Assembly: GCA_021399395.1 (NCBI GenBank)
Contig: JAAFKJ010000178.1
Span: 1 to 29,749 of the forward strand
From: Candidatus Heimdallarchaeota archaeon
Lineage (GTDB): Archaea > Asgardarchaeota > Heimdallarchaeia > Heimdallarchaeales > Heimdallarchaeaceae
Length of the DNA stretch: 29,749 nucleotides
Reading direction: 5' to 3'
In this document: positions 5,324 through 18,268 of the stretch, one piece after another
Numbering within the stretch: position 1 is the stretch's first letter
How the letters are laid out: each line of letters opens with the position of its first letter
The notes under the pieces: generated by a model
What the model saw: only the letters and a program-made list of their open reading frames with translations
Databases searched by the model: none
Told to the model about the DNA's origin: nothing
Program-made: the position numbers and the translations under genes

Positions 5324-6310
5324 TTAATCCATTTTTTCGCCACAGTTACCACAGAATTTGGCACCTGTTTCATTTTTGGACCCACAGTTGGTACAAAACT
5401 TCAATTTTCCTGATTTCTCATCATCTGTCGGATCACCACAGTGGGCGCAGAACTTCGCTGCTGGAGAGACTTTCTTTCCACATTGGTTACAATCAATAAA
5501 AGCTGCTTCAACATCACCTTTTTCTTCAATTTTGGTGGCTTGTTTTATTTCACCTCTAGAGAAAAGATTGTTAACCATGACAGCACCAGTCAAACCACTT
5601 CCACCTTCAGGGAGTTTTTCAACAACTTTAGCCATACCAGCATACTGTTGTACTTGACCTGCTGAAACACCAGAACGCATCCAGAAGAGTCTGTCTCTGT
5701 ATTCAGGTGTAGTATCAATGCCTCCAAACTTTAGTGTTTTTAGCTTGATTCCGAATTCTTTGAGATCAGGTTTTACTTCATCTTCTACGAAATCTGAAGT
5801 TTTTCCTAAATTGGACATTAGATCAACTATACTTTTTTCTGATAGTTTGCTAATAACAGATTCTACAATGAATGAACGGAAAAATTCATTGAATGCAGCT
5901 GTTGTATAGATATTTCTATTACCTGCTATTTCAAATGCGAATTTCTGTATGTCGTCAATCTTGTAGTAATAATCACCAAAGAATTGCACTGGAGCTAATT
6001 CTTGTGTTTGAGATCGCCCTCCGAATTTTCCTTGAAAGTCTGCCATATTTATGAAAATCACTTGACAATTGAATGGTGATTTATCAAATCCAACTATTTT
6101 CGACAAAAATGTTGTTAACAATGGAATATTCTTGGTTTTTATAAAATGTCTACCTGGTTTTAGAACATCAAAGACTACTGAATCTTTGATGAAAACTGCT
6201 ACCTGGTTAGGTAAAACATTACATTGGTCTCCCCAATTCAAAGTGTCACGAGGATGTCTGTACATTATCTCGTCGCCTCGACCTAGGGGCCATTCTATTA
6301 CTTCTACCAT
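5324..6310 (-). CDS. SPFH (band 7) domain protein with C-terminal double zinc ribbons (YdjI-like)
   Basis: N-terminal QCNVLPNQVAVFIKDS...LKPGRH...TKNIPLL, typical of YdjI-type SPFH proteins. C-terminal CNQC/CAHC and CTNC/CGNC. GAGGT precedes the ATG. Confidence 0.85.
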   Translation of the reverse strand: MVEVIEWPLGRGDEIMYRHPRDTLNWGDQCNVLPNQVAVFIKDSVVFDVLKPGRHFIKTKNIPLLTTFLSKIVGFDKSPFNCQVIFINMADFQGKFGGRSQTQELAPVQFFGDYYYKIDDIQKFAFEIAGNRNIYTTAAFNEFFRSFIVESVISKLSEKSIVDLMSNLGKTSDFVEDEVKPDLKEFGIKLKTLKFGGIDTTPEYRDRLFWMRSGVSAGQVQQYAGMAKVVEKLPEGGSGLTGAVMVNNLFSRGEIKQATKIEEKGDVEAAFIDCNQCGKKVSPAAKFCAHCGDPTDDEKSGKLKFCTNCGSKNETGAKFCGNCGEKMD

Positions 6311-7263: not shown

Positions 7264-7424
7264 TTCAATCCCAAATAAAATTCAAGCAACATTCCACAAG
7301 TTACAAATAAAAGCTTTAGTTTGAACAAAAATTCTATTTCTGAGCACTATTTTCTTGAAATCGCTTCGAATCCATTCCGTTTGTAAAAATTTAAGAATAG
7401 GTGAAAGCGACTGTTTGTTTAATA

Positions 7425-9020
7425 ATGCCATCCAAAAAAACCCTCAGTAGACTGAATCACATCTTTGGATTCATCTTGTATTGTCTGTTTCTACTATACT
7501 TTGGCTCATCTATAGCGGCTTTCGTAGTTAATGCATCTGAACTTGGAGCGGGAGGAATAATACTTAATTTCTTAGTCTTAGTTATTGAATTACTAGGTCC
7601 TCTATATGCAACTTATTTCCTTATTCAGAACATTGATGGTGTTCTTGATATCGGATCAGTAGAATATGATATCAAGAAAACTAAAGACCATCCTGCTATT
7701 GATGTAATTGTTCCCGTTCACAATGTAAATCCCAAAATTCTAGATTTAACACTTGAGGGTTGTAGTAAATTCACTTATCCCAATTTCAAAGTCTGGATAG
7801 CAGACGATAATTCCTTACCGGAATTTGAAGAGTCTACACAGAAGCTAGCTCAGAAATATGGTTTTACCTATCTCCGAGGAAAAGGTAGATCCTACAAAGC
7901 AGGAGTTGTTAATCAAGTAATGTCTGAAGCAAAAGCTCAATTTGTTGTAGTTTTTGATTCTGATCAAATACCTGTACCAGATATTCTGGACAAATACATT
8001 GCAATTCTAGAACAACATCCTGAATTTGCCTTTGTTCAAGCAAAATATGAATTCAGAAGCGTGTCTAATTTTCTACATATTTGGGAAACAATGTCTACTC
8101 ACCAATTATTTGTTTCTGAGGGTGGCAAAAGACGAATAAAATCAGTTGTTTTCTTTGGTACATCTGCTTGTTTCCGCAAAGAACACCTATATCCTATGCC
8201 AGAGAACAAGCTTTCAGAAGATTATGACCATTATATCACAATTGCAGCAAATGGCCATTACGGTTACTGGTTGAATGAAGTTGCTGCAAAGGGTTTGTCA
8301 ACAGAATCCTTTGATCATAAGATGTCACAGATGTTTCGCTGGACTAAAGGTCAATTTGGTGCAGTAATGGATCATAAGAAAGAGCTTTTTGTTAGCAAAC
8401 TAAGACTTCGTCAGAGAGTAGATATTTTTATGAGTTCAACTGTTGTGGTTGTTTTGACAGCTTTCTATTTCATGGGTGCGCTCTTTATTGCTCATTATTT
8501 CACAGACATACCTATGTATAGAGCGCTTGGTATTGATCAACTTGCACTTATCATTATGCCAGTAATTATTGCTTTGGTATACTTCGGTGTCTTTGGAGCT
8601 GTAGGAGCCTATTCCAAGAAATCTAACGATTTCAAATTTAGATGGTGGTATGTTCTTTACTTTATGCTATACGGAGCACTAATGGCACCATTCTTACTCA
8701 TTCCTTTAGGCAACGGTTTATTTGGCCGAAACAAGATAAAACCAGGTAAGAAGTTCCAATGGAACAAGAAAATCAGGGTCTATTTGATAGCTGTAATTTA
8801 TACAATTTTAGGAGCTGGGTTTGGCTTCTTAGGAGTAATCTCATTAATGGATTCTTTAAACATAGGTCCCTTTCAATTCTATACAGACCCAAACATGTTT
8901 TACATCATGTTTCTCTCAATAGCTTTCATGTTAATCTTTGCTTTACCATTTGTAGCCATTTCCAAGAAAATTTTCAAAATAGAAGAATATTATACCGAAG
9001 ATGCAAGCATCTACTACTAA
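7425..9020 (+). CDS. Processive GT2 glycosyltransferase, cellulose-synthase-like
   Basis: D,D,D,QxxRW signature: ADD, YKAG, FDSD, FFGTS, SED, QMFRW. Two N-terminal and several C-terminal TMs; no PilZ domain. ATG 7425 preferred over GTG 7401. Confidence 0.85.
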   Translation: MPSKKTLSRLNHIFGFILYCLFLLYFGSSIAAFVVNASELGAGGIILNFLVLVIELLGPLYATYFLIQNIDGVLDIGSVEYDIKKTKDHPAIDVIVPVHNVNPKILDLTLEGCSKFTYPNFKVWIADDNSLPEFEESTQKLAQKYGFTYLRGKGRSYKAGVVNQVMSEAKAQFVVVFDSDQIPVPDILDKYIAILEQHPEFAFVQAKYEFRSVSNFLHIWETMSTHQLFVSEGGKRRIKSVVFFGTSACFRKEHLYPMPENKLSEDYDHYITIAANGHYGYWLNEVAAKGLSTESFDHKMSQMFRWTKGQFGAVMDHKKELFVSKLRLRQRVDIFMSSTVVVVLTAFYFMGALFIAHYFTDIPMYRALGIDQLALIIMPVIIALVYFGVFGAVGAYSKKSNDFKFRWWYVLYFMLYGALMAPFLLIPLGNGLFGRNKIKPGKKFQWNKKIRVYLIAVIYTILGAGFGFLGVISLMDSLNIGPFQFYTDPNMFYIMFLSIAFMLIFALPFVAISKKIFKIEEYYTEDASIYY

Positions 9021-10367
9021 TCATTCCTCTACATAGGATGATTCAGGGAGGAATTCTTCTTCCTTTTTATCTATTATCTCTTTACAGACAGGACATTTAG
9101 GATTAAATCTTAACCATGTTTCTAAATGATCTATGTGGTAGATATTTTCACACAATAAGCATTTTGCTATTTGGGTCCCTCTTTCAATTTTACTATTGCA
9201 TATCATACATTTAGGTAACAACTCTTCACAATTCCAGCAATATTCTTTACCTATTTCATTAGGTCTATTACAATTTGGACACCTAGTTAGTTTTCTATAT
9301 TTGAATACTCGTTTAGTTTTCTGAGCTGTCTTATATAGATACATTCTAGCATTACTGATATCTTCACCAAAGTGTTCTCTCCAATCTAAAATTGGTTTAA
9401 CTATTGCTATTCCGCATACTAGAGAAGATAATGCTATGCGTATTTCTAGTTCAAATATTCCTAAGAAATGAAATACTAGAAACATTGCCACTCCAAAAAC
9501 AAATAAAATCAGATAATTCCTAATGATAATAAATTTGATTGACTTCCCAATTACTTTGAAAACCTCAACAGTTTTTTCATAAATCCAAATCACAAACTTC
9601 TTCATAATTTGAGGAAACTGTTTGATAGCTCTCCACCATGCTTGGAACATAGTTGTGAATACTTTTCCAATTGTCACAAGTATTTCAGCGATTTCCCTTC
9701 TAAAGTGCCAAATGAGGTTGATTAGAATTAAACCTCCTCCAATTAGATACCAGTATAATGGTTTAATCCAAACTAATACTTGAACAGCTGTTAAGATAAT
9801 TACAGTTATACCTGCAACGGATAACAAATTCCAAGGTGATAGGAGTAATTTCCAGTTGATCTTCTTCCAAATATTCTTTATTGCTTCCTTAAGTTTCTTC
9901 AAGAGTGCGATTATTTTTAAATTCAGATCATACGCCTCAAAGAAGAAACCAAAAAGTATCAATATTGCTCCCGCTCCCATCATAATATAATAGATATAAT
10001 CACGATCAAATGCAGTCACACCAACAGCGAAAAGAATTGCAGGAAAAGCTACTAAAATGAATCCTATATATGCTGTTATTGCTCCGGTTACAAAGTAGTC
10101 TATCCCCTTTCTTCTTATTCTTCTTAGAATTAGAGCAAAGAACAAAATCAGTACTCCTATTACAAAGACTCCAAGAACTATTCTAAAGACAAGATCTTCG
10201 TAAGTCATATCCAGAGCTAAAGTAATGACTAAAATCCCAATTATGCTTAAAACTGAAATAGCAAATCCTATCCACAGAGTTGTAATAACAGGATTTCGCT
10301 CTACAAGACCAGGATCTTTAAGCTCCCCTTTCAAATCAATGGAATCCTTGCTGTTCATTTCTTCCAC
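9021..10367 (-). CDS. Polytopic membrane protein with C-terminal Zn ribbon plus RING-type finger (putative membrane E3 ligase-like)
   Basis: About 8 TMs, then CPNC...CWNC, then C-x2-C-x12-C-x2-C-x4-H-x2-H-x3-W-x6-CP-x-C with the RING-type W...CP signature. Confidence 0.75.
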   Translation of the reverse strand: MEEMNSKDSIDLKGELKDPGLVERNPVITTLWIGFAISVLSIIGILVITLALDMTYEDLVFRIVLGVFVIGVLILFFALILRRIRRKGIDYFVTGAITAYIGFILVAFPAILFAVGVTAFDRDYIYYIMMGAGAILILFGFFFEAYDLNLKIIALLKKLKEAIKNIWKKINWKLLLSPWNLLSVAGITVIILTAVQVLVWIKPLYWYLIGGGLILINLIWHFRREIAEILVTIGKVFTTMFQAWWRAIKQFPQIMKKFVIWIYEKTVEVFKVIGKSIKFIIIRNYLILFVFGVAMFLVFHFLGIFELEIRIALSSLVCGIAIVKPILDWREHFGEDISNARMYLYKTAQKTKRVFKYRKLTRCPNCNRPNEIGKEYCWNCEELLPKCMICNSKIERGTQIAKCLLCENIYHIDHLETWLRFNPKCPVCKEIIDKKEEEFLPESSYVEE

Positions 10368-12865
10368 CTCTCTCGAATCTGTTTGAGAAGTTCCTTTGAA
10401 CTACCAGTTCTTAATTTCTTTAATTCTCTTCTAAGTAGGATGAAAGCAACTACTGCTACAACATCGAAGAATGCACCTAAAGAGATTCTAATTGCAGGTT
10501 CAATTGCATCAAATATATGGAAGAAATCAAAATTGAAAATAACAAATATACCATATACCAGAGTGAATATCATCACTACGAGTAGAATCAGTCTAATACC
10601 GTTTTTGTAGATGTAAATTGAAACAGATTTGATTGCTAACAATATTGTAACAGATATTTTGTAGATAGTCTTAGGAATGCTAACTAGGAATTTCCAAAGC
10701 TTCTTTGGATGATAAATGAAATGTGCAAATAGAGTAAATGTACCTCCAATTGATACAATTAGGATAAATGCGACTAGACCGATAATATCATCAAATGCAA
10801 AATAAAGGACTACTCCAACAATTACAGCTGCGAATCCAATGACTCTTGAAATAATAATTCTTTTATTAAAGATGAATGTAAATATGGCTTTGAAAAATTC
10901 ATAGATCTTAACTAAAACAATCTTTCTACTGAACAAGCCACTAATAAGTATAACAGGGATTCCTATCCAAATTAGATAATCATAACCAACAAGAATTAAA
11001 CCATATACTATTAGAGTAACACCACCTGCCACTCCAATCAACCTTAATAGTTCTTTTGTGACGCTCCACCAATGTTTCTTGATGAATTTAGCAACTTCAA
11101 CCATCCAATTCCATATAGCTTTGAAGAAATCTACTATGATATTCAAAAAACGCAAGAAAGGATTGTAAAAGATCTTGATACCTATAAATTTGATACCCTT
11201 CCATACTTGTTTGTAGTGATGAACGGGGATGTAGCAAAAACTAATTACTAGTAGAACAATATACCACCATTCAAACATCCAGGTCACAGAAAGATAGATG
11301 ATTGCGGTAATTGCAACCAAATCTAGTATGTATAACAAGACCTTGAACCAGTTTTCAATGAAAAATTTAGTAAGATTAACTATGACCTTCCATATGTAGT
11401 TTAGTGGTCTCCCTAACCATTTTATAAATTCCCAAAAGGCTAGGGTTATTTCCTTAAGTGCTGCATATATCCTTCTTAATATTGTCATACGTATGAAAAA
11501 TTCTGCTAATAGAATTACTGCAATTCCAATATAAACAAAGTAATAGAAAACTTCATTGACAATTCCATAATAAATAAGGAAGATACCCACTCCAACAAAA
11601 ATCAATCTAACTGTTTCATTAATAATTCTCTTGTAATGTGGTTTGATAATATTCTCCCAGATGAAAGTGAAAATAGCTGAAATCATGTTCCACAAACCTA
11701 TCAAAACAGTTTTTCTAGATAGGATTATAGAACAGATGATAACTACAACACCTATGCCTATGAAGTAAGAAAACTGATCATATACTGTTCCATGATAGAT
11801 GAGATAAGCTCCACCACCAGCTCCAATCAATCTTAATAGCTCTTTTAGAATGGGCCACCAATATTTGAGAATAACTCTTGCAAAAGCAACTATCAGATCC
11901 CATATGAACGATGTAATTGAGGTTAATACATCCCATAACATAGTTAATACAATTTTTCGGGTAAAAACTACACTTATAATTGCAGTTAGTATCCCTAATC
12001 CTATCAAAAATCTGTATTCAACTATTATCACACCAAAATAGATCATTACTCCCCCTCCTGCAGCTCCACTCCATCTGAAAAACTCTCTGAGAATAACCCA
12101 CCAATATTCCTTTATGAGTTTAGCAAAATTGACTAAGCCTTTCCAAATTGAAGTAAGAATCAATTTAAAGAAATTATAAAATTTAGTTAGGACTAAATAA
12201 ATCATATCTACTGCAACATGTTTTATAGCATTCCATATTCTTTTGTGGTGATGAATAATTGGGAAAGCACAACTTACTGAAAGGATTATCATCTTCCACC
12301 AATTAACTTCCCAGAAGATTGCCACAAAAATTATTCCAGCCAGAGATGCTAAATCAAGTGTATAAAGAATGATGTTTAACCAATGTTTTCGAACCCATTT
12401 AGCAAATTTAACCATTAGTTTCCAGAGCTGTTTGAATGGCTCTACAAATAGTTTCCAGATGAATTGATCTAAAAATGTAAGTTCAACAATAATCCCCAAT
12501 ACTATTGACCCTATCCCCCAATATACGAAAAATCTATAACCAAGATAACTCAGATTTAAATTTTCTAGAAATGAGATATTCTTACTAGTTGACATTAGAA
12601 TCAGTAAAAATCCAATAACGACAAAGAATATACCAACTTGTATTTTCTTATTAACTGTCAAATTGTATCTCAGCATCTGTACTGTCAAGTAAAAAACAAT
12701 GACAAGAGAACTCACAATTAGAGAGATGAAGAGGATATCGTTGAGTAAAGCAATTTCCTCGATTACTAGAGAAAGAATAAACATAGTAACGATGATAATA
12801 ACAAAAGAATAGTAAAATACATTTGATAAAACATTATGTACTCTTTTTTCCTTCTCTAGCTCCAT
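10355..12865 (-). CDS. Large repetitive polytopic membrane protein (TM-hairpin plus amphipathic-helix repeats)
   Basis: 836-aa ORF in which hydrophobic helix pairs alternate with W/K/F amphipathic stretches. Overlaps the downstream RING gene by 13 bp. Confidence 0.8.
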   Translation of the reverse strand: MELEKEKRVHNVLSNVFYYSFVIIIVTMFILSLVIEEIALLNDILFISLIVSSLVIVFYLTVQMLRYNLTVNKKIQVGIFFVVIGFLLILMSTSKNISFLENLNLSYLGYRFFVYWGIGSIVLGIIVELTFLDQFIWKLFVEPFKQLWKLMVKFAKWVRKHWLNIILYTLDLASLAGIIFVAIFWEVNWWKMIILSVSCAFPIIHHHKRIWNAIKHVAVDMIYLVLTKFYNFFKLILTSIWKGLVNFAKLIKEYWWVILREFFRWSGAAGGGVMIYFGVIIVEYRFLIGLGILTAIISVVFTRKIVLTMLWDVLTSITSFIWDLIVAFARVILKYWWPILKELLRLIGAGGGAYLIYHGTVYDQFSYFIGIGVVVIICSIILSRKTVLIGLWNMISAIFTFIWENIIKPHYKRIINETVRLIFVGVGIFLIYYGIVNEVFYYFVYIGIAVILLAEFFIRMTILRRIYAALKEITLAFWEFIKWLGRPLNYIWKVIVNLTKFFIENWFKVLLYILDLVAITAIIYLSVTWMFEWWYIVLLVISFCYIPVHHYKQVWKGIKFIGIKIFYNPFLRFLNIIVDFFKAIWNWMVEVAKFIKKHWWSVTKELLRLIGVAGGVTLIVYGLILVGYDYLIWIGIPVILISGLFSRKIVLVKIYEFFKAIFTFIFNKRIIISRVIGFAAVIVGVVLYFAFDDIIGLVAFILIVSIGGTFTLFAHFIYHPKKLWKFLVSIPKTIYKISVTILLAIKSVSIYIYKNGIRLILLVVMIFTLVYGIFVIFNFDFFHIFDAIEPAIRISLGAFFDVVAVVAFILLRRELKKLRTGSSKELLKQIRERWKK
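10700..12450 (-). repeat. Protein-level tandem repeats (~75-95 aa) inside the 836-aa membrane protein
   Basis: Type A units at aa ~162 and ~506 (WxxxxLYxLDL...WW...HHxKxxWxxIK). Type B units at aa ~255, 336, 411 and 599 (WWxxx(K/R)ExxRxxG(A/V)xGG...IYxG...IG...SRK). The A-to-B distance is 93 aa in both copies. Confidence 0.8.
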
Positions 12866-12963
12866 CTAGCTATCTATGTTTGCTTATTATTTAAGTATTA
12901 ACTATTCGTAATCTTAACACATTACATGCTTGCAAGTCTCAGAAATTTAATTATGAAGAATGA

Positions 12964-14331
12964 CTAGGGTAAGGGATGTAGATAATGCCTATCTACATCT
13001 ACATATTCCTCTCCGTTGTAAACTAGATATTCAGCATGTACATCATGTAATTCGTTATACTTCTGATACCAAGGTGATGTCCCAAGTAATGACCATTTTT
13101 CAGCAATTTCTTTGCTTATCGAAATCTTTTTTTCATTCTCCATTGCTATTTTTATTGATTCTGCAAGAGAAAGAGAGCATGCCAATATAACAGCTGTTGG
13201 AGTTGTTCGAATTGAGGAAAAATTCCAGAGTCTTGTCTTAGCTACAATATAATTAACAATCTCTGCAGGAAAGATTTCTTCGTTTATATTTGATTTTTCT
13301 AAGAGTTTTGTAACCAATTCTTTCAGGTGTGATTCATTAAAAGGGAATTCTTTGGAAATGTCATATACATCAAAACTTTCATCTACAAAAGAAGAGATAT
13401 CTTTTCCTCCCGAAATAATAAAAAGATTGATTTCTTTTTTAGGATACTTTGATTCCATTTTCTGTTTCAAAACGTGAATATCTATATCTATCTCGTCAAC
13501 AAATAATACTAGATTTTCTCCTGGAGATTTTTCCACAACCCATTCAGTGACACTTTCAGCAGAATTTTCCGGGTTAAATTCTACATCAATATATTTTCCA
13601 TCGTCTCCCTTCCAAAACTCAGTTCTATAGATGAATGGCAAAGAAAGATCTTTACACCTTTTCATCAAAGAGTAACAAATTTGAGTTTTACCAGAACCAC
13701 CATATCGACCATAAATGTGCGCGTTCTTCTCAGGTTGAATACCTTCTTTCATTTGGGTAAGTGTTTGATCAAGTATTTGTACCAACGAATGATCTACAAC
13801 AAAATCGTGTCTCATCCAGCAACTATCAGGATTAACGAGTGGTGAATATTGTTTATAGTTGCTAAAGATATCTAGGGCGTCCTCTCTTGTAAAACCTATA
13901 TTTATTTTTAGTATTTCTGTTTCATTATGAGGAAATGGAATTGTCGGAATAACATCTGAGCCATAGAGGAGTGTTCGTGTATTCTTTAGATTAATCTGGT
14001 CTTCTGGCAAGAGACAGTGGTTATTCCTAATATTAATGTGCCACAGATTAGTTTTAGTACGTATATAACTTCTTGAAAATGAATTTGCAAGTCTTACACC
14101 TTCCTCCCAACCAAATTCATCTTGTAGTTTGTCATAAATTAAATCGATGAGTAAAAGATTTTCGAGACTGTAATCAGATTCAGATATAATAATGACTAAC
14201 CCTTCACGCTTTTCTAGAATTTTATCAAAAAGAGTGATTTCCTTATCAAACTCATATACTGCAATGATCTCTGGAAAGATAAGTAATAGTTTTTCAATAA
14301 ATGATTTGAGTATGTCTTCTCTCGAGCTCAT
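12964..14331 (-). CDS. P-loop NTPase (AAA+/STAND-like) with a degenerate nucleotidyltransferase-like N-terminal domain
   Basis: Walker A HIYGRYGGSGKT and Walker B LVLFVDEID. The N-terminal LLPEDQINLKNTRTLLYGSDVIPTIPFP resembles the neighbouring gene's LSPADDFMIMKQGEVLYGVDLRKHFPIP. Confidence 0.65.
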   Translation of the reverse strand: MSSREDILKSFIEKLLLIFPEIIAVYEFDKEITLFDKILEKREGLVIIISESDYSLENLLLIDLIYDKLQDEFGWEEGVRLANSFSRSYIRTKTNLWHINIRNNHCLLPEDQINLKNTRTLLYGSDVIPTIPFPHNETEILKINIGFTREDALDIFSNYKQYSPLVNPDSCWMRHDFVVDHSLVQILDQTLTQMKEGIQPEKNAHIYGRYGGSGKTQICYSLMKRCKDLSLPFIYRTEFWKGDDGKYIDVEFNPENSAESVTEWVVEKSPGENLVLFVDEIDIDIHVLKQKMESKYPKKEINLFIISGGKDISSFVDESFDVYDISKEFPFNESHLKELVTKLLEKSNINEEIFPAEIVNYIVAKTRLWNFSSIRTTPTAVILACSLSLAESIKIAMENEKKISISKEIAEKWSLLGTSPWYQKYNELHDVHAEYLVYNGEEYVDVDRHYLHPLP

Positions 14332-14341
14332 CTGAGTATAC

Positions 14342-15241
14342 TTAGAGGTTCTCTATTATATTTCTTATCTCCATGAATATTCTACTAAAATTTGCATGTC
14401 CTTGGTCTTCTTTGTAAAGAGATTTTAGGTCTGGTACAAATATGCCCTTAATCGTGAATGCTTTTTCCAAGCAAAATAATAAGAGTTCCCGGCTATGTTC
14501 TACTACCCCCATAACACTAGATAAAGAGATATTCCTTTGCCTACACATCGCTACTTCTACAACGAAATCACCTAACTTGCTAAGATATTCATTCGAGAAC
14601 CAATATGCTCCCTTCATTTTCCCAATTATGTCATTATTTTTTATGGAAAACAATACTCTTGAAAGGTAAAGTATCCAATTTGTTGCATGATCATAGTTTG
14701 GGGAATCAGTATGTTGGAAAGGATACGATTTTGCGACTTCTTCTATATTTGGAACCTCTGCTAGAAACTGATGCCAAAAACACTCTATTGGTGGTATAGG
14801 GAAATGCTTTCTCAAGTCTACGCCATATAATACCTCGCCTTGTTTCATAATCATGAAATCATCAGCAGGAGAAAGAGGATATTGGTTGATTATCTCTTGT
14901 TGAAGATTGGCAACTACCATTCCTTCCAAATCTTGGTGATTAATTCTTGGATTTTCTAACATGATATAAGGAACAAAATATGCCCTAAGTATCTGGGAGA
15001 AATCCTTATTCATGGTTGAAAGTTTATCTATAATCGAATCAAGTTCGTTGAAATCTTTTTCCCATAACCCCTTTTCTAAAACAATTATAACCTTAATAAG
15101 ACTGTATCTTTTAGAAAAATCATCTAAAACGACATCACCAAAGAGGATGAAAGATCTCGTTGCAAGAGATGTTGCTGTGAATTCTACAAAAGTTTTGAGA
15201 AATCTAGGTAGCTCTGGATACCTTCCATAGGTGACTTGCAT
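14342..15241 (-). CDS. Nucleotidyltransferase-fold protein, aminoglycoside adenylyltransferase (AadA/DUF4111)-like, apparently catalytically inactive
   Basis: FILFGDVVLDDF...SLIKVIIV aligns with the hhhGS...SDxDhhh motif. GEVLYG and ILYLSRVLFSIKNNDIIGKMKGAYW match the ANT C-terminal helical domain. The catalytic aspartates are absent. Confidence 0.65.
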   Translation of the reverse strand: MQVTYGRYPELPRFLKTFVEFTATSLATRSFILFGDVVLDDFSKRYSLIKVIIVLEKGLWEKDFNELDSIIDKLSTMNKDFSQILRAYFVPYIMLENPRINHQDLEGMVVANLQQEIINQYPLSPADDFMIMKQGEVLYGVDLRKHFPIPPIECFWHQFLAEVPNIEEVAKSYPFQHTDSPNYDHATNWILYLSRVLFSIKNNDIIGKMKGAYWFSNEYLSKLGDFVVEVAMCRQRNISLSSVMGVVEHSRELLLFCLEKAFTIKGIFVPDLKSLYKEDQGHANFSRIFMEIRNIIENL

Positions 15242-17231: not shown

Positions 17232-17882
17232 ATGACTCAAGAGAAGAAAATTACTGTAAAAAAACCTGCTTATCTTCAAAATGATAAACTAGCAGATGAA
17301 ATAAGAGAGATAATGAAGAGCAAAGATAAACTATTCTTCAATGTTATGGGGTCCATTGGTGCAGGTAAGACATTCTTATTAGAGCGAATAGCTGAGAAGC
17401 TAACCCCCCATTATAGGATTTTTGTAATTAATGGAGATGTCGCAACTACCATCGATGCAGATAGGATAGCATCAAAAGGAGCTACAACTGTTCAGATAAA
17501 CACAGGTGGAGGATGCCATCTCAATGCAAAATTAATTCAGAACGAATTGGATAAAATAAATATAGATGACTATGATATTTTCTTCACAGAAAATGTTGGT
17601 AATTTGATATGTCCTTCTGCTTGGGATGTGGGAGCCCAACTGGACATTGTTGTTGTAAGTATTACAGAAGGAGAGTATGTAATTAAGAAACATCCAATTA
17701 TTTTCAAAGGTGCTCAAATTGCAGTAATTAATAAATGCGATTTAGATGGATTAGGCTTCAATTCAGATACTTTGGTAGAAGATGCAAAAAAAATAAAATC
17801 TGACATGAAGGTTATTTGTACAAGTGCAAAACAGATAACGGGTATAGATGAGCTTATCGCAGCATTAGGTATCAAGATATAA
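17232..17882 (+). CDS. hypB: Hydrogenase nickel-incorporation GTPase HypB
   Basis: GSIGAGKT, NGD...DA, TGGGCHL, ENVGNLICP, SITEG...KHP, NKCD and SAK motifs. Confidence 0.95.
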   Translation: MTQEKKITVKKPAYLQNDKLADEIREIMKSKDKLFFNVMGSIGAGKTFLLERIAEKLTPHYRIFVINGDVATTIDADRIASKGATTVQINTGGGCHLNAKLIQNELDKINIDDYDIFFTENVGNLICPSAWDVGAQLDIVVVSITEGEYVIKKHPIIFKGAQIAVINKCDLDGLGFNSDTLVEDAKKIKSDMKVICTSAKQITGIDELIAALGIKI

Positions 17883-17896
17883 TAGGTTGTAGTGAA

Positions 17897-18268
17897 ATGC
17901 ACGAATATAGTCTTGCTTCAGCAATCATAAATCAAGTTAAACAGGTAGCTAGAGAACACAATGCTACAAAAGTCAATAAAATAACTGTTTCAGCTGATCC
18001 TTATGAAATGGTCATTCCTGAACTTTTACAGGATGCATTTAATATAATAACAAGCGAACTTGAACTCTTCGAAGGTACACAACTTGAATTACTTCGTCTC
18101 CCTGCTGAAATTATATGTTTAGATTGTGATTACAAAGGGAAACCATCTGAAGAAGGCGACAAGGAATTTGCTTACAATTTTAAATGCCCAAAATGTGATT
18201 CTAGAGACACCCACCTAAATATTAGACATCTAACAATTGAAACGGTTGATCTTGAAATACCAGAGTAA
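17897..18268 (+). CDS. hypA: Hydrogenase maturation nickel metallochaperone HypA
   Basis: N-terminal MHE Ni site, CLDC and CPKC Zn site; adjacent to hypB. Confidence 0.93.
   Translation: MHEYSLASAIINQVKQVAREHNATKVNKITVSADPYEMVIPELLQDAFNIITSELELFEGTQLELLRLPAEIICLDCDYKGKPSEEGDKEFAYNFKCPKCDSRDTHLNIRHLTIETVDLEIPE

Follow-up and report, generated by a model that had tools for sequence, protein, structure and literature searches.

Overlapping genes for distantly related membrane proteins, one of them RING-tipped, form a candidate membrane-bound ubiquitin ligase of Heimdall-group Asgard archaea

Here we describe a pair of overlapping genes in a 29,749-nucleotide stretch of DNA from a Candidatus Heimdallarchaeota archaeon (GenBank assembly GCA_021399395.1, contig JAAFKJ010000178.1, positions 1 to 29,749; hereafter the window), which encode a long polytopic membrane protein (P0001) and a short one (P0002) that ends in a zinc ribbon and a RING-like finger. 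The overlap of related membrane-protein genes, on which a preliminary description of this DNA had remarked, is confirmed. The interpretation offered there, namely that the two proteins form a heteromeric membrane complex coupling membrane shaping or scaffolding to ubiquitin-like tagging, is partly supported, in that paralogy, synteny and the RING hold at the level of sequence. The pair is a predicted operon of two genes, restricted to a single order of Heimdall-group Asgard archaea, and it probably specifies a ubiquitin ligase seated in the membrane, the membrane domain of which has no earlier description. The parts of the two proteins are listed here, with the residues of the short protein numbered from its ATG (445 residues).

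10355..12865 (-): long gene (P0001), an open reading frame (ORF) for an 836-residue polytopic membrane protein made up of transmembrane (TM) helices 1-4 and a module array, without a soluble domain.
12671..12832 (-): first hydrophobic hairpin, TM1-TM2, long residues 12-65 (hydropathy; helices 3-34 and 38-71 in the AlphaFold2 (AF2) model).
12419..12631 (-): TM3-TM4 hairpin, long residues 79-149, which scores as a repeat module (module hidden Markov model (HMM), invariant columns).
10850..12442 (-): six tandem modules of ~90 residues, M1-M6, long residues 142-672 (module HMM, hhalign of the family profile with itself).
10427..10861 (-): two degenerate C-terminal hairpins, long residues 669-813, followed by a K/R-rich tail (hydropathy, invariant columns).
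9021..10358 (-): short gene, 445 residues with eight TM helices by prediction, a pair of long amphipathic helices, a zinc ribbon and a RING finger (ORF, AF2).
9387..10292 (-): membrane domain of the short protein, residues 23-324, colinear with long residues 11-303 (hhalign, hydropathy).
9228..9281 (-): zinc ribbon, C360-x2-C363-x10-C374-x2-C377 (invariant cysteines, weak DZR match).
9084..9209 (-): RING finger, C384 C387 / C400 C403 / H408 H411 / C422 C425 (invariant columns, zf-RING_2, PDB profile).

The short membrane domain and the N-terminal ~305 residues of the long protein are very probably homologous, so that the paralogy first proposed for the pair stands, as a distant one. A comparison of the two family alignments with hhalign gave a match (probability 83.7%, E = 8e-6) that placed long residues 603-822 with short residues 118-328. 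Because helical membrane repeats inflate hhalign scores, we ran two kinds of control, block shuffles that preserve local hydrophobicity and a reversed profile. With the smaller original alignments, the comparison of long residues 1-320 with the short membrane domain reached 41.0 in local mode (25 shuffles, 18.4 ± 3.9, maximum 27.1; reversed, 20.4) and 27.4 in global mode (shuffles, 2.6 ± 2.2; reversed, 12.5). When the alignments were extended to 30 and 37 sequences with more distant homologues, taken from two sister families within the order, the same comparison gave a local score of 60.7 (probability 94.2%, E = 1.1e-7) over 287 columns that paired long residues 2-306 with short residues 18-324, against 17.9 ± 3.3 (maximum 25.0) for 20 block shuffles and 33.8 for the reversed profile; in global mode the score was 54.1 (probability 96.7%, E = 4.8e-10), against 5.8 ± 4.3 (maximum 19.2) for 20 block shuffles and 26.8 for the reversed profile. 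With these alignments, long residues 11-303 fall colinearly on short residues 22-321. In HMMER searches with the long-family HMM, short-family sequences scored up to 20.1 bits and reversed sequences no more than 3.3, and a profile of the ORFs that lie upstream of the RING gene in two further families (f2 and f4, described below) independently matched the short-family N terminus (39.9-43.6, against a null of ~19 ± 3.3). The profile alignment also recovers the register in which the N-terminal motifs had originally been matched: G85-F86 of the long protein falls with G99-F100 of the short one, E128..D133 with E141..N146, and HHHKRIW with WHFRREI, the realigned pairs being IGFLLIL/IGFILVA, GIIVELTFLDQ/GFFFEAYDLN and the hairpins that end in HHHKRIW/WHFRREI.

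The two proteins are built to one plan, as previously suggested, and on this plan a hydropathy scan and AF2 agree: four TM helices come first, followed by repeats of a K/R/W-rich helix of 28-62 residues and a hydrophobic hairpin of 40-49 residues. AF2 divides each of these hydrophobic stretches into two helices joined by a turn of 3-8 residues, and in the modules the hairpin arms measure ~16-19 residues and the outer turns 3-8. In both proteins the hydropathy scan shows K/R-rich segments alternating with acidic or very short turns. Under the positive-inside rule K/R-rich segments lie on the cytoplasmic side, and because of this distribution we infer that both termini, all the amphipathic helices and the RING are cytoplasmic.

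The long protein is an array of ~90-residue modules, each consisting of an amphipathic K/R/W-rich helix and a TM hairpin. The long-family profile aligned with itself off the diagonal with E values from 7.5e-55 to 1.2e-38, and a module HMM iterated on the long family found in P0001 seven copies that score 25 bits or more (residues 79-149, 142-227, 231-323, 317-405, 405-482, 486-573 and 578-672), with scores of 72-110 bits per module for M1-M6 and a reversed-sequence maximum of 6 bits (hmmsearch). Together with the two degenerate C-terminal hairpins, these copies bear out the earlier count of about eight modules and no soluble domain. The degenerate hairpins are well conserved in the long family (invariant columns I730...W834) and align to short residues 206-328. 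M1 and M5 are of a type with a terminal H-H motif, and M2, M3, M4 and M6 have a GxGG...IYxG hairpin. Identity between modules of P0001 is 10-45% overall, with 35-45% among three of the four GxGG-type copies, 24% between M4 and M2, and 30% between the two HH-type copies; at identities of 24-45%, the duplications would therefore be old. Among members of the long family the number of modules varies from 4 to 8. TM3-TM4 of the long protein bears an invariant motif (G85 F86 ... W116 G117 I118 ... E128 L129 T130 .. D133 Q134), and the invariant charged or polar residues within its membrane segments are E128, D133, Q134, D171, D515 and H549-H550. By the hydropathy scan the protein has almost no extracellular mass. 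Its sole outer loop of more than 8 residues comprises residues 96-111 (window 12533-12580, -), in which two N-x-S sequons (NIS and NLS) would be possible N-glycosylation sites if the loop is extracellular.

The short protein consists of TM1-4 and two modules, followed by a helix, the zinc ribbon and the RING finger (AF2, hydropathy, invariant columns), an organization already read from the sequence at the outset and sustained here by the invariant cysteines and by the match of all 31 aligned family members to zf-RING_2 (PF13639) at E <= 0.01 (best, 2.5e-7). Precomputed Pfam assignments likewise give PF13639 to most relatives of the short protein. In a comparison of the family profile with the PDB, the leading matches were RING-H2 ubiquitin ligases (E3s), namely Arkadia (E = 2.7e-7), RNF165, RNF38, EL5, RNF13, synoviolin (1.8e-3) and AMFR (6.3e-3). 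Aligned to Arkadia, C384 and C387 correspond to zinc ligands 1 and 2, C403 to ligand 3, H408 to ligand 5, and C422 and C425 to ligands 7 and 8. Four further finger residues, I386, N405, W415 and P423, are invariant in the 31 sequences, and I386, W415 and P423 align to an I, a W and a P of Arkadia. These are the positions that we take to be those by which RING-H2 fingers contact the ubiquitin-conjugating enzyme (E2), that is, a hydrophobic residue after ligand 1, a Trp of the central helix and a Pro after ligand 7; as read from their sequences, five f4 homologues retain V/I, W and P there. We also found that 10 of the 31 short-family members match Prok-RING_1 (PF14446) at E <= 0.01 (best, 2.4e-6), the short protein of the window scoring 13.2 bits, under the cut-off of 29.1. 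Judged by its zf-RING_2 and PDB matches, the short finger is probably a member of the RING-H2 superfamily with variant ligands.

The gene pair is conserved, as had been anticipated, across the genomes in which it was found. Word-indexed searches returned 24 relatives of the long protein (33-78% identity) and 36 of the short protein; the named relatives are Heimdallarchaeaceae or Heimdallarchaeota metagenome-assembled genomes, with one labelled Thorarchaeota, and three long/short pairs among these database relatives have consecutive locus tags. Among 1.84 billion clustered representatives, a HMMER search with the long-family profile retrieved 24 proteins at E <= 0.001, a count in which short-family members were not set apart, the weakest of the longer matches being P0083 (E = 7.3e-7). 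Of 400 Asgard genomes, 32 gave matches to the short membrane domain, the window's own genome (G000) included. Excluding that genome, the matches fell in 23 of 30 genomes of family f1, the single genome of f2 and 7 of 12 of f4, three families of one order, and the Asgard genomes among the 400 that lie beyond these families gave none. With P0001 as the query, the long protein was found in f1 only (22 of 30 genomes). The long gene lies immediately upstream of the short gene, on the same strand, in each of the 21 genomes (own included) that have both on one contig; in G034 the two are on separate contigs, and in G022 a contig end falls at the expected site of the long gene. Eight f2 and f4 genomes matched, and the six examined all carry a polytopic ORF of 501-731 residues adjoining the RING gene, which it overlaps by 4 nucleotides in five and abuts in the other. 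These six ORFs were missed by BLASTP and by the long-family HMM. A profile built from them, however, matched the long family with probability 96.1% (E = 3.2e-9, score 82.6, 599 columns), against 18.5 ± 2.9 (maximum 22.5) for shuffles and 32.6 for the reversed profile. Since a diverged homologue of the long protein thus adjoins the RING gene in six of six f2 and f4 genomes, the cassette is conserved across the order. Taken together, these comparisons indicate that the two-gene cassette is kept across the order while its long member diverges quickly and varies in module number. In G010 (f2), the upstream long-type ORF (L056 2833-4572, -) contains two almost identical copies of ~60 residues (...LWTKKRWRGISTT...LNWT.IKLALYELGK...), which would represent a recent module duplication and hence an array that is still expanding.

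The junction of the two genes and the region ahead of them hold three further features.

10355..10358 (-): ATGA, in which the TGA of the long gene (10357-10355) overlaps the likely ATG of the short gene (10358-10356) (sequence).
10365..10370 (-): GAGGTG, a Shine-Dalgarno-like motif that ends 6 nucleotides ahead of this ATG and contains the alternative GTG at 10367 (sequence; putative function).
12884..12900 (-): TATA-like AT-rich stretch (TAATACTTAAATAATAA), ~25 nucleotides ahead of the ATG of the long gene (sequence; putative promoter).

The overlap had been given as 13 base pairs. That figure arises if the short ORF is read from its first GTG (9021..10367, -; 448 residues; P0002); the true overlap is most likely the 4 nucleotides of the ATGA. 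We take the short protein as 445 residues and the overlap as 4 nucleotides because of the ATGA, the Shine-Dalgarno-like motif (the junction reads GAGAGGTGGAAGAAATGAAC) and the start of a database copy of the short protein, P0027, which begins at the ATG, has 445 residues and is identical at 444 of 445. A 4-nucleotide ATGA overlap is a frequent arrangement in coupled translation, and the long and short genes are probably coupled in this way. An AT-rich spacer of 98 base pairs, within which the TATA-like stretch lies, separates the stop of the preceding gene from the long gene, and the 3' end of the short gene stands back-to-back with a convergent GT2 gene; because of this spacer upstream and the convergent gene downstream, the transcription unit probably consists of the long and short genes alone.

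The membrane parts of the pair belong to no family described in the databases searched, in line with what had been noted at first, neither membrane domain being matched in Pfam, NCBIfam, PADLOC or the PDB. For the long protein there were no Pfam families at E <= 1 (Reticulon and TB2/DP1 included) and no matches at E <= 1 in a PDB profile search with the long family; NCBIfam and PADLOC returned nothing for the long or the short protein, and searches of the ESM Atlas, one with the long protein and one with short residues 1-335, gave no usable match. A Foldseek search of the PDB with the AF2 model of the short protein had no matches at E <= 0.001, its top rows being mostly RING or zinc modules of other proteins. 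With VIA-align the best Z score of this model was 8.4, from generic matches of two to four helices (residues 17-142) that assign no fold, and Hrd1 (chain 9uav_B) ranked 32, tied with generic hairpins (Z 7.4, root-mean-square deviation 6.0, 120 aligned residues). A complex prediction with long residues 1-330, long residues 560-836 and short residues 1-340 gave a score of 0.18 and a mark of 0.32, which weighs neither way on binding.

We suggest the following mechanism for the pair. In the common module, an amphipathic K/R/W-rich helix would face the cytoplasm and lead into a TM hairpin whose outer turn is very short. The short protein would consist of a shared core (four TM helices and two modules) and then a cytoplasmic helix, the zinc ribbon and the RING-H2-like finger. 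It would most likely act as an E3 embedded in the membrane, bringing to the inner side of the membrane the charged E2 of the cell's own ubiquitin system. The long protein would have the same core, without the RING and with five to six extra modules, and would most likely assemble with the short protein as its RING-less partner, possibly with translation coupled through the ATGA; it would supply a platform in the membrane and at the membrane surface for the choice of membrane-protein substrates or for oligomerization. That the short protein is a membrane-anchored E3 with a cytoplasmic finger, the long protein its RING-less platform partner, and membrane proteins their substrates, is a proposal whose chances we put as evenly balanced. 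A further step, in which the complex of the RING protein and the RING-less hairpin array would recognize membrane proteins within the bilayer and tag them for sorting by the endosomal sorting complex required for transport (ESCRT) or for extraction by Cdc48 and the proteasome, is speculative and seems to us rather doubtful.

Components with which such a ligase could work are encoded in the same genome, which has four UQ_con (E2) and two ubiquitin matches above the Pfam cut-offs. Matches to UQ_con and ubiquitin lie a few kilobases apart on two contigs (C180:12309-14091 and C179:14885-19610; L041, L042, L044 and L045), and these are likely ubiquitin-system clusters that would supply E2 to the RING proteins. 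An Asgard cascade of ubiquitin-activating enzyme (E1), E2 and RING E3 has been reconstituted in vitro (bioRxiv 10.1101/2023.07.25.550441).

Several observations weigh against reading the pair as related subunits of a ligase. The short protein of the window lies just below the Pfam cut-off for zf-RING_2 (26.9 bits, cut-off 27.3; E = 5.7e-6). Relative to the RING-H2 finger of Arkadia, Asn405 stands at the position of the ligand-4 His and His411 replaces the ligand-6 Cys, and there is an extra invariant cysteine, C400, three residues ahead of ligand 3 (C403). Because of the substitutions at ligands 4 and 6, the finger reads as a C4H2C2 variant of RING-H2, with eight invariant candidate zinc ligands in the order C-C-C-C-H-H-C-C, as against the cross-brace C-C-C-H-H-C-C-C of RING-H2; C400 would be the obvious substitute for ligand 4. 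The f2 homologue in G010 (L056 1238-2836, -) keeps the membrane domain and the zinc ribbon and has a long acidic and lysine-rich tail, and its finger is without the first CxxC and both His, so that the membrane pair can evidently persist without a complete RING. No tertiary fold backs the ligase reading, since both AF2 models have a low predicted template modelling score (pTM): the model of the short protein has a mean predicted local distance difference test (pLDDT) score of 74.5 and a pTM of 0.37, that of the long protein 65.3 and 0.24, and in both the helices are confident and the packing is not. As regards relatedness, BLASTP of the long protein against the short one gave no significant match (best E = 0.084), the short-family membrane HMM showed no signal on long sequences (7.8 bits, reversed 6.0; HMMER), and the comparison of the full-length long profile with the short membrane profile, inserts removed, was marginal (34.3; maximum of 40 block shuffles, 32.6; reversed, 27.6). 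Fused long and short proteins (785-2240 residues) were sought and none found, which is weak evidence.

These last comparisons are what one would cite for the view that the proteins are unrelated, alike only in the composition and periodicity that helical membrane proteins have in common, and brought next to each other by the operon and no more: BLASTP is silent, the short-family HMM fails to separate real from reversed long sequences, and the full-length score barely exceeds the best shuffle. We nevertheless regard this view as very unlikely, given an alignment that is colinear over 268-293 columns at a probability of 94-97%, ~13 standard deviations above block shuffles and well above the reversed profiles, an independent profile of the f2 and f4 upstream ORFs that also matches the short N terminus, and invariant motifs of the two families that fall in the same register.

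Another possibility is that the proteins form a transporter, channel or enzyme in which the intramembrane acidic and His residues act and the zinc module is a regulatory or protein-binding finger rather than an E3. Both families have invariant E, D, Q and H residues within TM segments or at their margins, the finger is non-canonical and falls slightly under the Pfam cut-off in the window protein, and the f2 homologue retains the membrane pair with a half-degenerate finger. Against this, no such family was matched in Pfam, NCBIfam or the PDB, the three presumed E2-contact positions are invariant in 31 sequences and kept in the five f4 homologues, and the significant matches among solved structures are all E3 RINGs; we therefore hold a role of this kind to be unlikely. 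It may instead be the hairpin arrays that are functional, as a reticulon/REEP-like wedge scaffold that bends or stabilizes curved membrane, with the RING merely regulating turnover or tagging. A short-armed hairpin beside an amphipathic helix is the anatomy of reticulon-type wedges, and each module has just this build (arms of ~16-19 residues, turns of 3-8); the near absence of extracellular mass fits as well, and a module number that ranges from 4 to 8 across the family is expected of a scaffold rather than of an enzyme. A membrane-shaping role is thus compatible with the hairpin-plus-amphipathic-helix anatomy. However, the long protein has no Pfam match at E <= 1 and hence none to Reticulon or TB2/DP1, and invariant E128, D133, Q134, D171, D515 and H549-H550 within the membrane would be unexpected in a passive wedge, so that a scaffold with an incidental RING appears quite improbable.

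If the RING protein and its RING-less partner do select membrane proteins within the bilayer, the complex would be an Asgard functional counterpart, and possibly a forerunner in kind, of the membrane ligases of endoplasmic-reticulum-associated degradation (ERAD) and of peroxisomes; it would also be a ligase built on a membrane fold unseen elsewhere, whose hairpin array might sense or impose curvature. Asgard archaea have ubiquitin, E1, E2, small RING E3s and ESCRT, and the tagging of membrane cargo would need a ligase seated in the membrane. The literature searched, which did not cover supplements and subscription papers, yielded no account of a polytopic RING protein from Asgard archaea. The locus is a compact candidate, with two genes, a soluble C-terminal finger and a partner protein, and if it is active, the origin of membrane-protein ubiquitylation before eukaryotes becomes directly testable. 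The pair also adds a new repeat-built membrane domain family.

Other genes of the window and of its genome deserve mention. Downstream of the RING gene, window 5324-6310 (-) encodes an SPFH/Band-7 protein (Band_7_1, E = 4e-22) with two C-terminal zinc ribbons. In four relatives of the same genus the SPFH gene directly follows the RING gene (L049 12359-13348, L050 12077-13060, L051 7589-8572 and L052 14736-15675); in the window, GT2 and FTR1 genes are inserted between the two. The SPFH gene is not beside the pair in the one further f1 genus whose examined locus reaches downstream (G014, L053) nor in f2 and f4. Eukaryotic SPFH proteins (erlins) partner a membrane RING ligase. A conserved link to the GT2 gene at 7401-9020 was ruled out, since L049, L051 and L052 have no GT2 gene separating the pair from the SPFH gene, and so was a reading of the neighbourhood as a defence island, PADLOC having no matches for the pair or for six neighbouring genes.

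On the upstream side, two conserved genes at 12964-14331 (-) and 14342-15241 (-) encode proteins of 455 residues (containing GGSGKT, which resembles a Walker A motif, and the stretch LVLFVDEID) and 299 residues, and neither was matched in Pfam, NCBIfam, PADLOC or the PDB. Most of the loci examined within the genus have these two genes together with that of a 592-residue archaeal-pilin-N protein; they are not always beside the RING pair, L049 and L050 being rearranged. A nickel-insertion pair, HypB-like (cobW/HypB/UreG) and HypA, at window 17232-18268 (+) is conserved near the locus across the genus.

The zinc modules themselves recur elsewhere. The region of the zinc ribbon and RING (short residues ~349-430, window ~9069-9314, -) gave weak PDB-profile matches to zinc modules at the C termini of WDR19/IFT144 of IFT-A (E = 1.4e-4) and of GATOR2 subunits (E = 0.02-0.2). 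In the window's own genome, the C termini of ~10 ORFs match the zinc ribbon plus RING (contigs C172, C95, C161 with two, C53 with two, C75, C54 and C57; L002-L008). Each of the four that were read has the pattern C..CPxC-x4-HxxH..W..CPxC on a differing N-terminal region, two of them with one or two predicted TM helices. The number of these ORFs, and the variant pattern in all four read, suggest a lineage-specific expansion of the C4H2C2 type of RING.

Among known systems, Hrd1/synoviolin and gp78/AMFR resemble the short protein in having a multi-pass membrane domain followed by a C-terminal RING-H2-type finger, which in the short protein is placed on the cytoplasmic side by prediction; Hrd1 has eight TM helices. 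Ligases of the Hrd1/gp78 type in the endoplasmic reticulum operate with other membrane subunits (abstract of PMC6914336); here, by contrast, the ligase would be partnered by its own paralogue, and its finger, which follows a zinc ribbon, is of the variant C4H2C2 type. A further difference is that the membrane domains have no detectable similarity, the RING alone being matched. The paralogous membrane subunits recall Pex2, Pex10 and Pex12, which are paralogous membrane proteins with C-terminal cytosolic RINGs that make up one membrane-embedded ligase. All three of these carry fingers, whereas in the pair described here one paralogue is fingerless and expanded by repeats. No similarity to Pex2, Pex10 or Pex12 was seen in the PDB profile or VIA-align searches, none of which was aimed at Pex proteins. 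Because the finger alone matches, the pair has no demonstrable membership in the Hrd1/gp78 or the Pex2/10/12 families. Reticulon/REEP-type proteins are alike in their short-armed TM hairpins beside amphipathic helices; they differ in that there is no sequence match and in that the long protein has up to ~ten hairpins with conserved charged residues within the membrane. The soluble RING E3 of the reconstituted Asgard cascade is described as small, with a loop at its N terminus through which it binds UEV-Vps23 (bioRxiv 10.1101/2023.07.25.550441). It shares with the short protein the phylum, the kind of finger and the presumed E1, E2 and ubiquitin partners, and it differs in that the protein of the window is anchored by eight predicted TM helices of a family without earlier description and paired with a paralogue.

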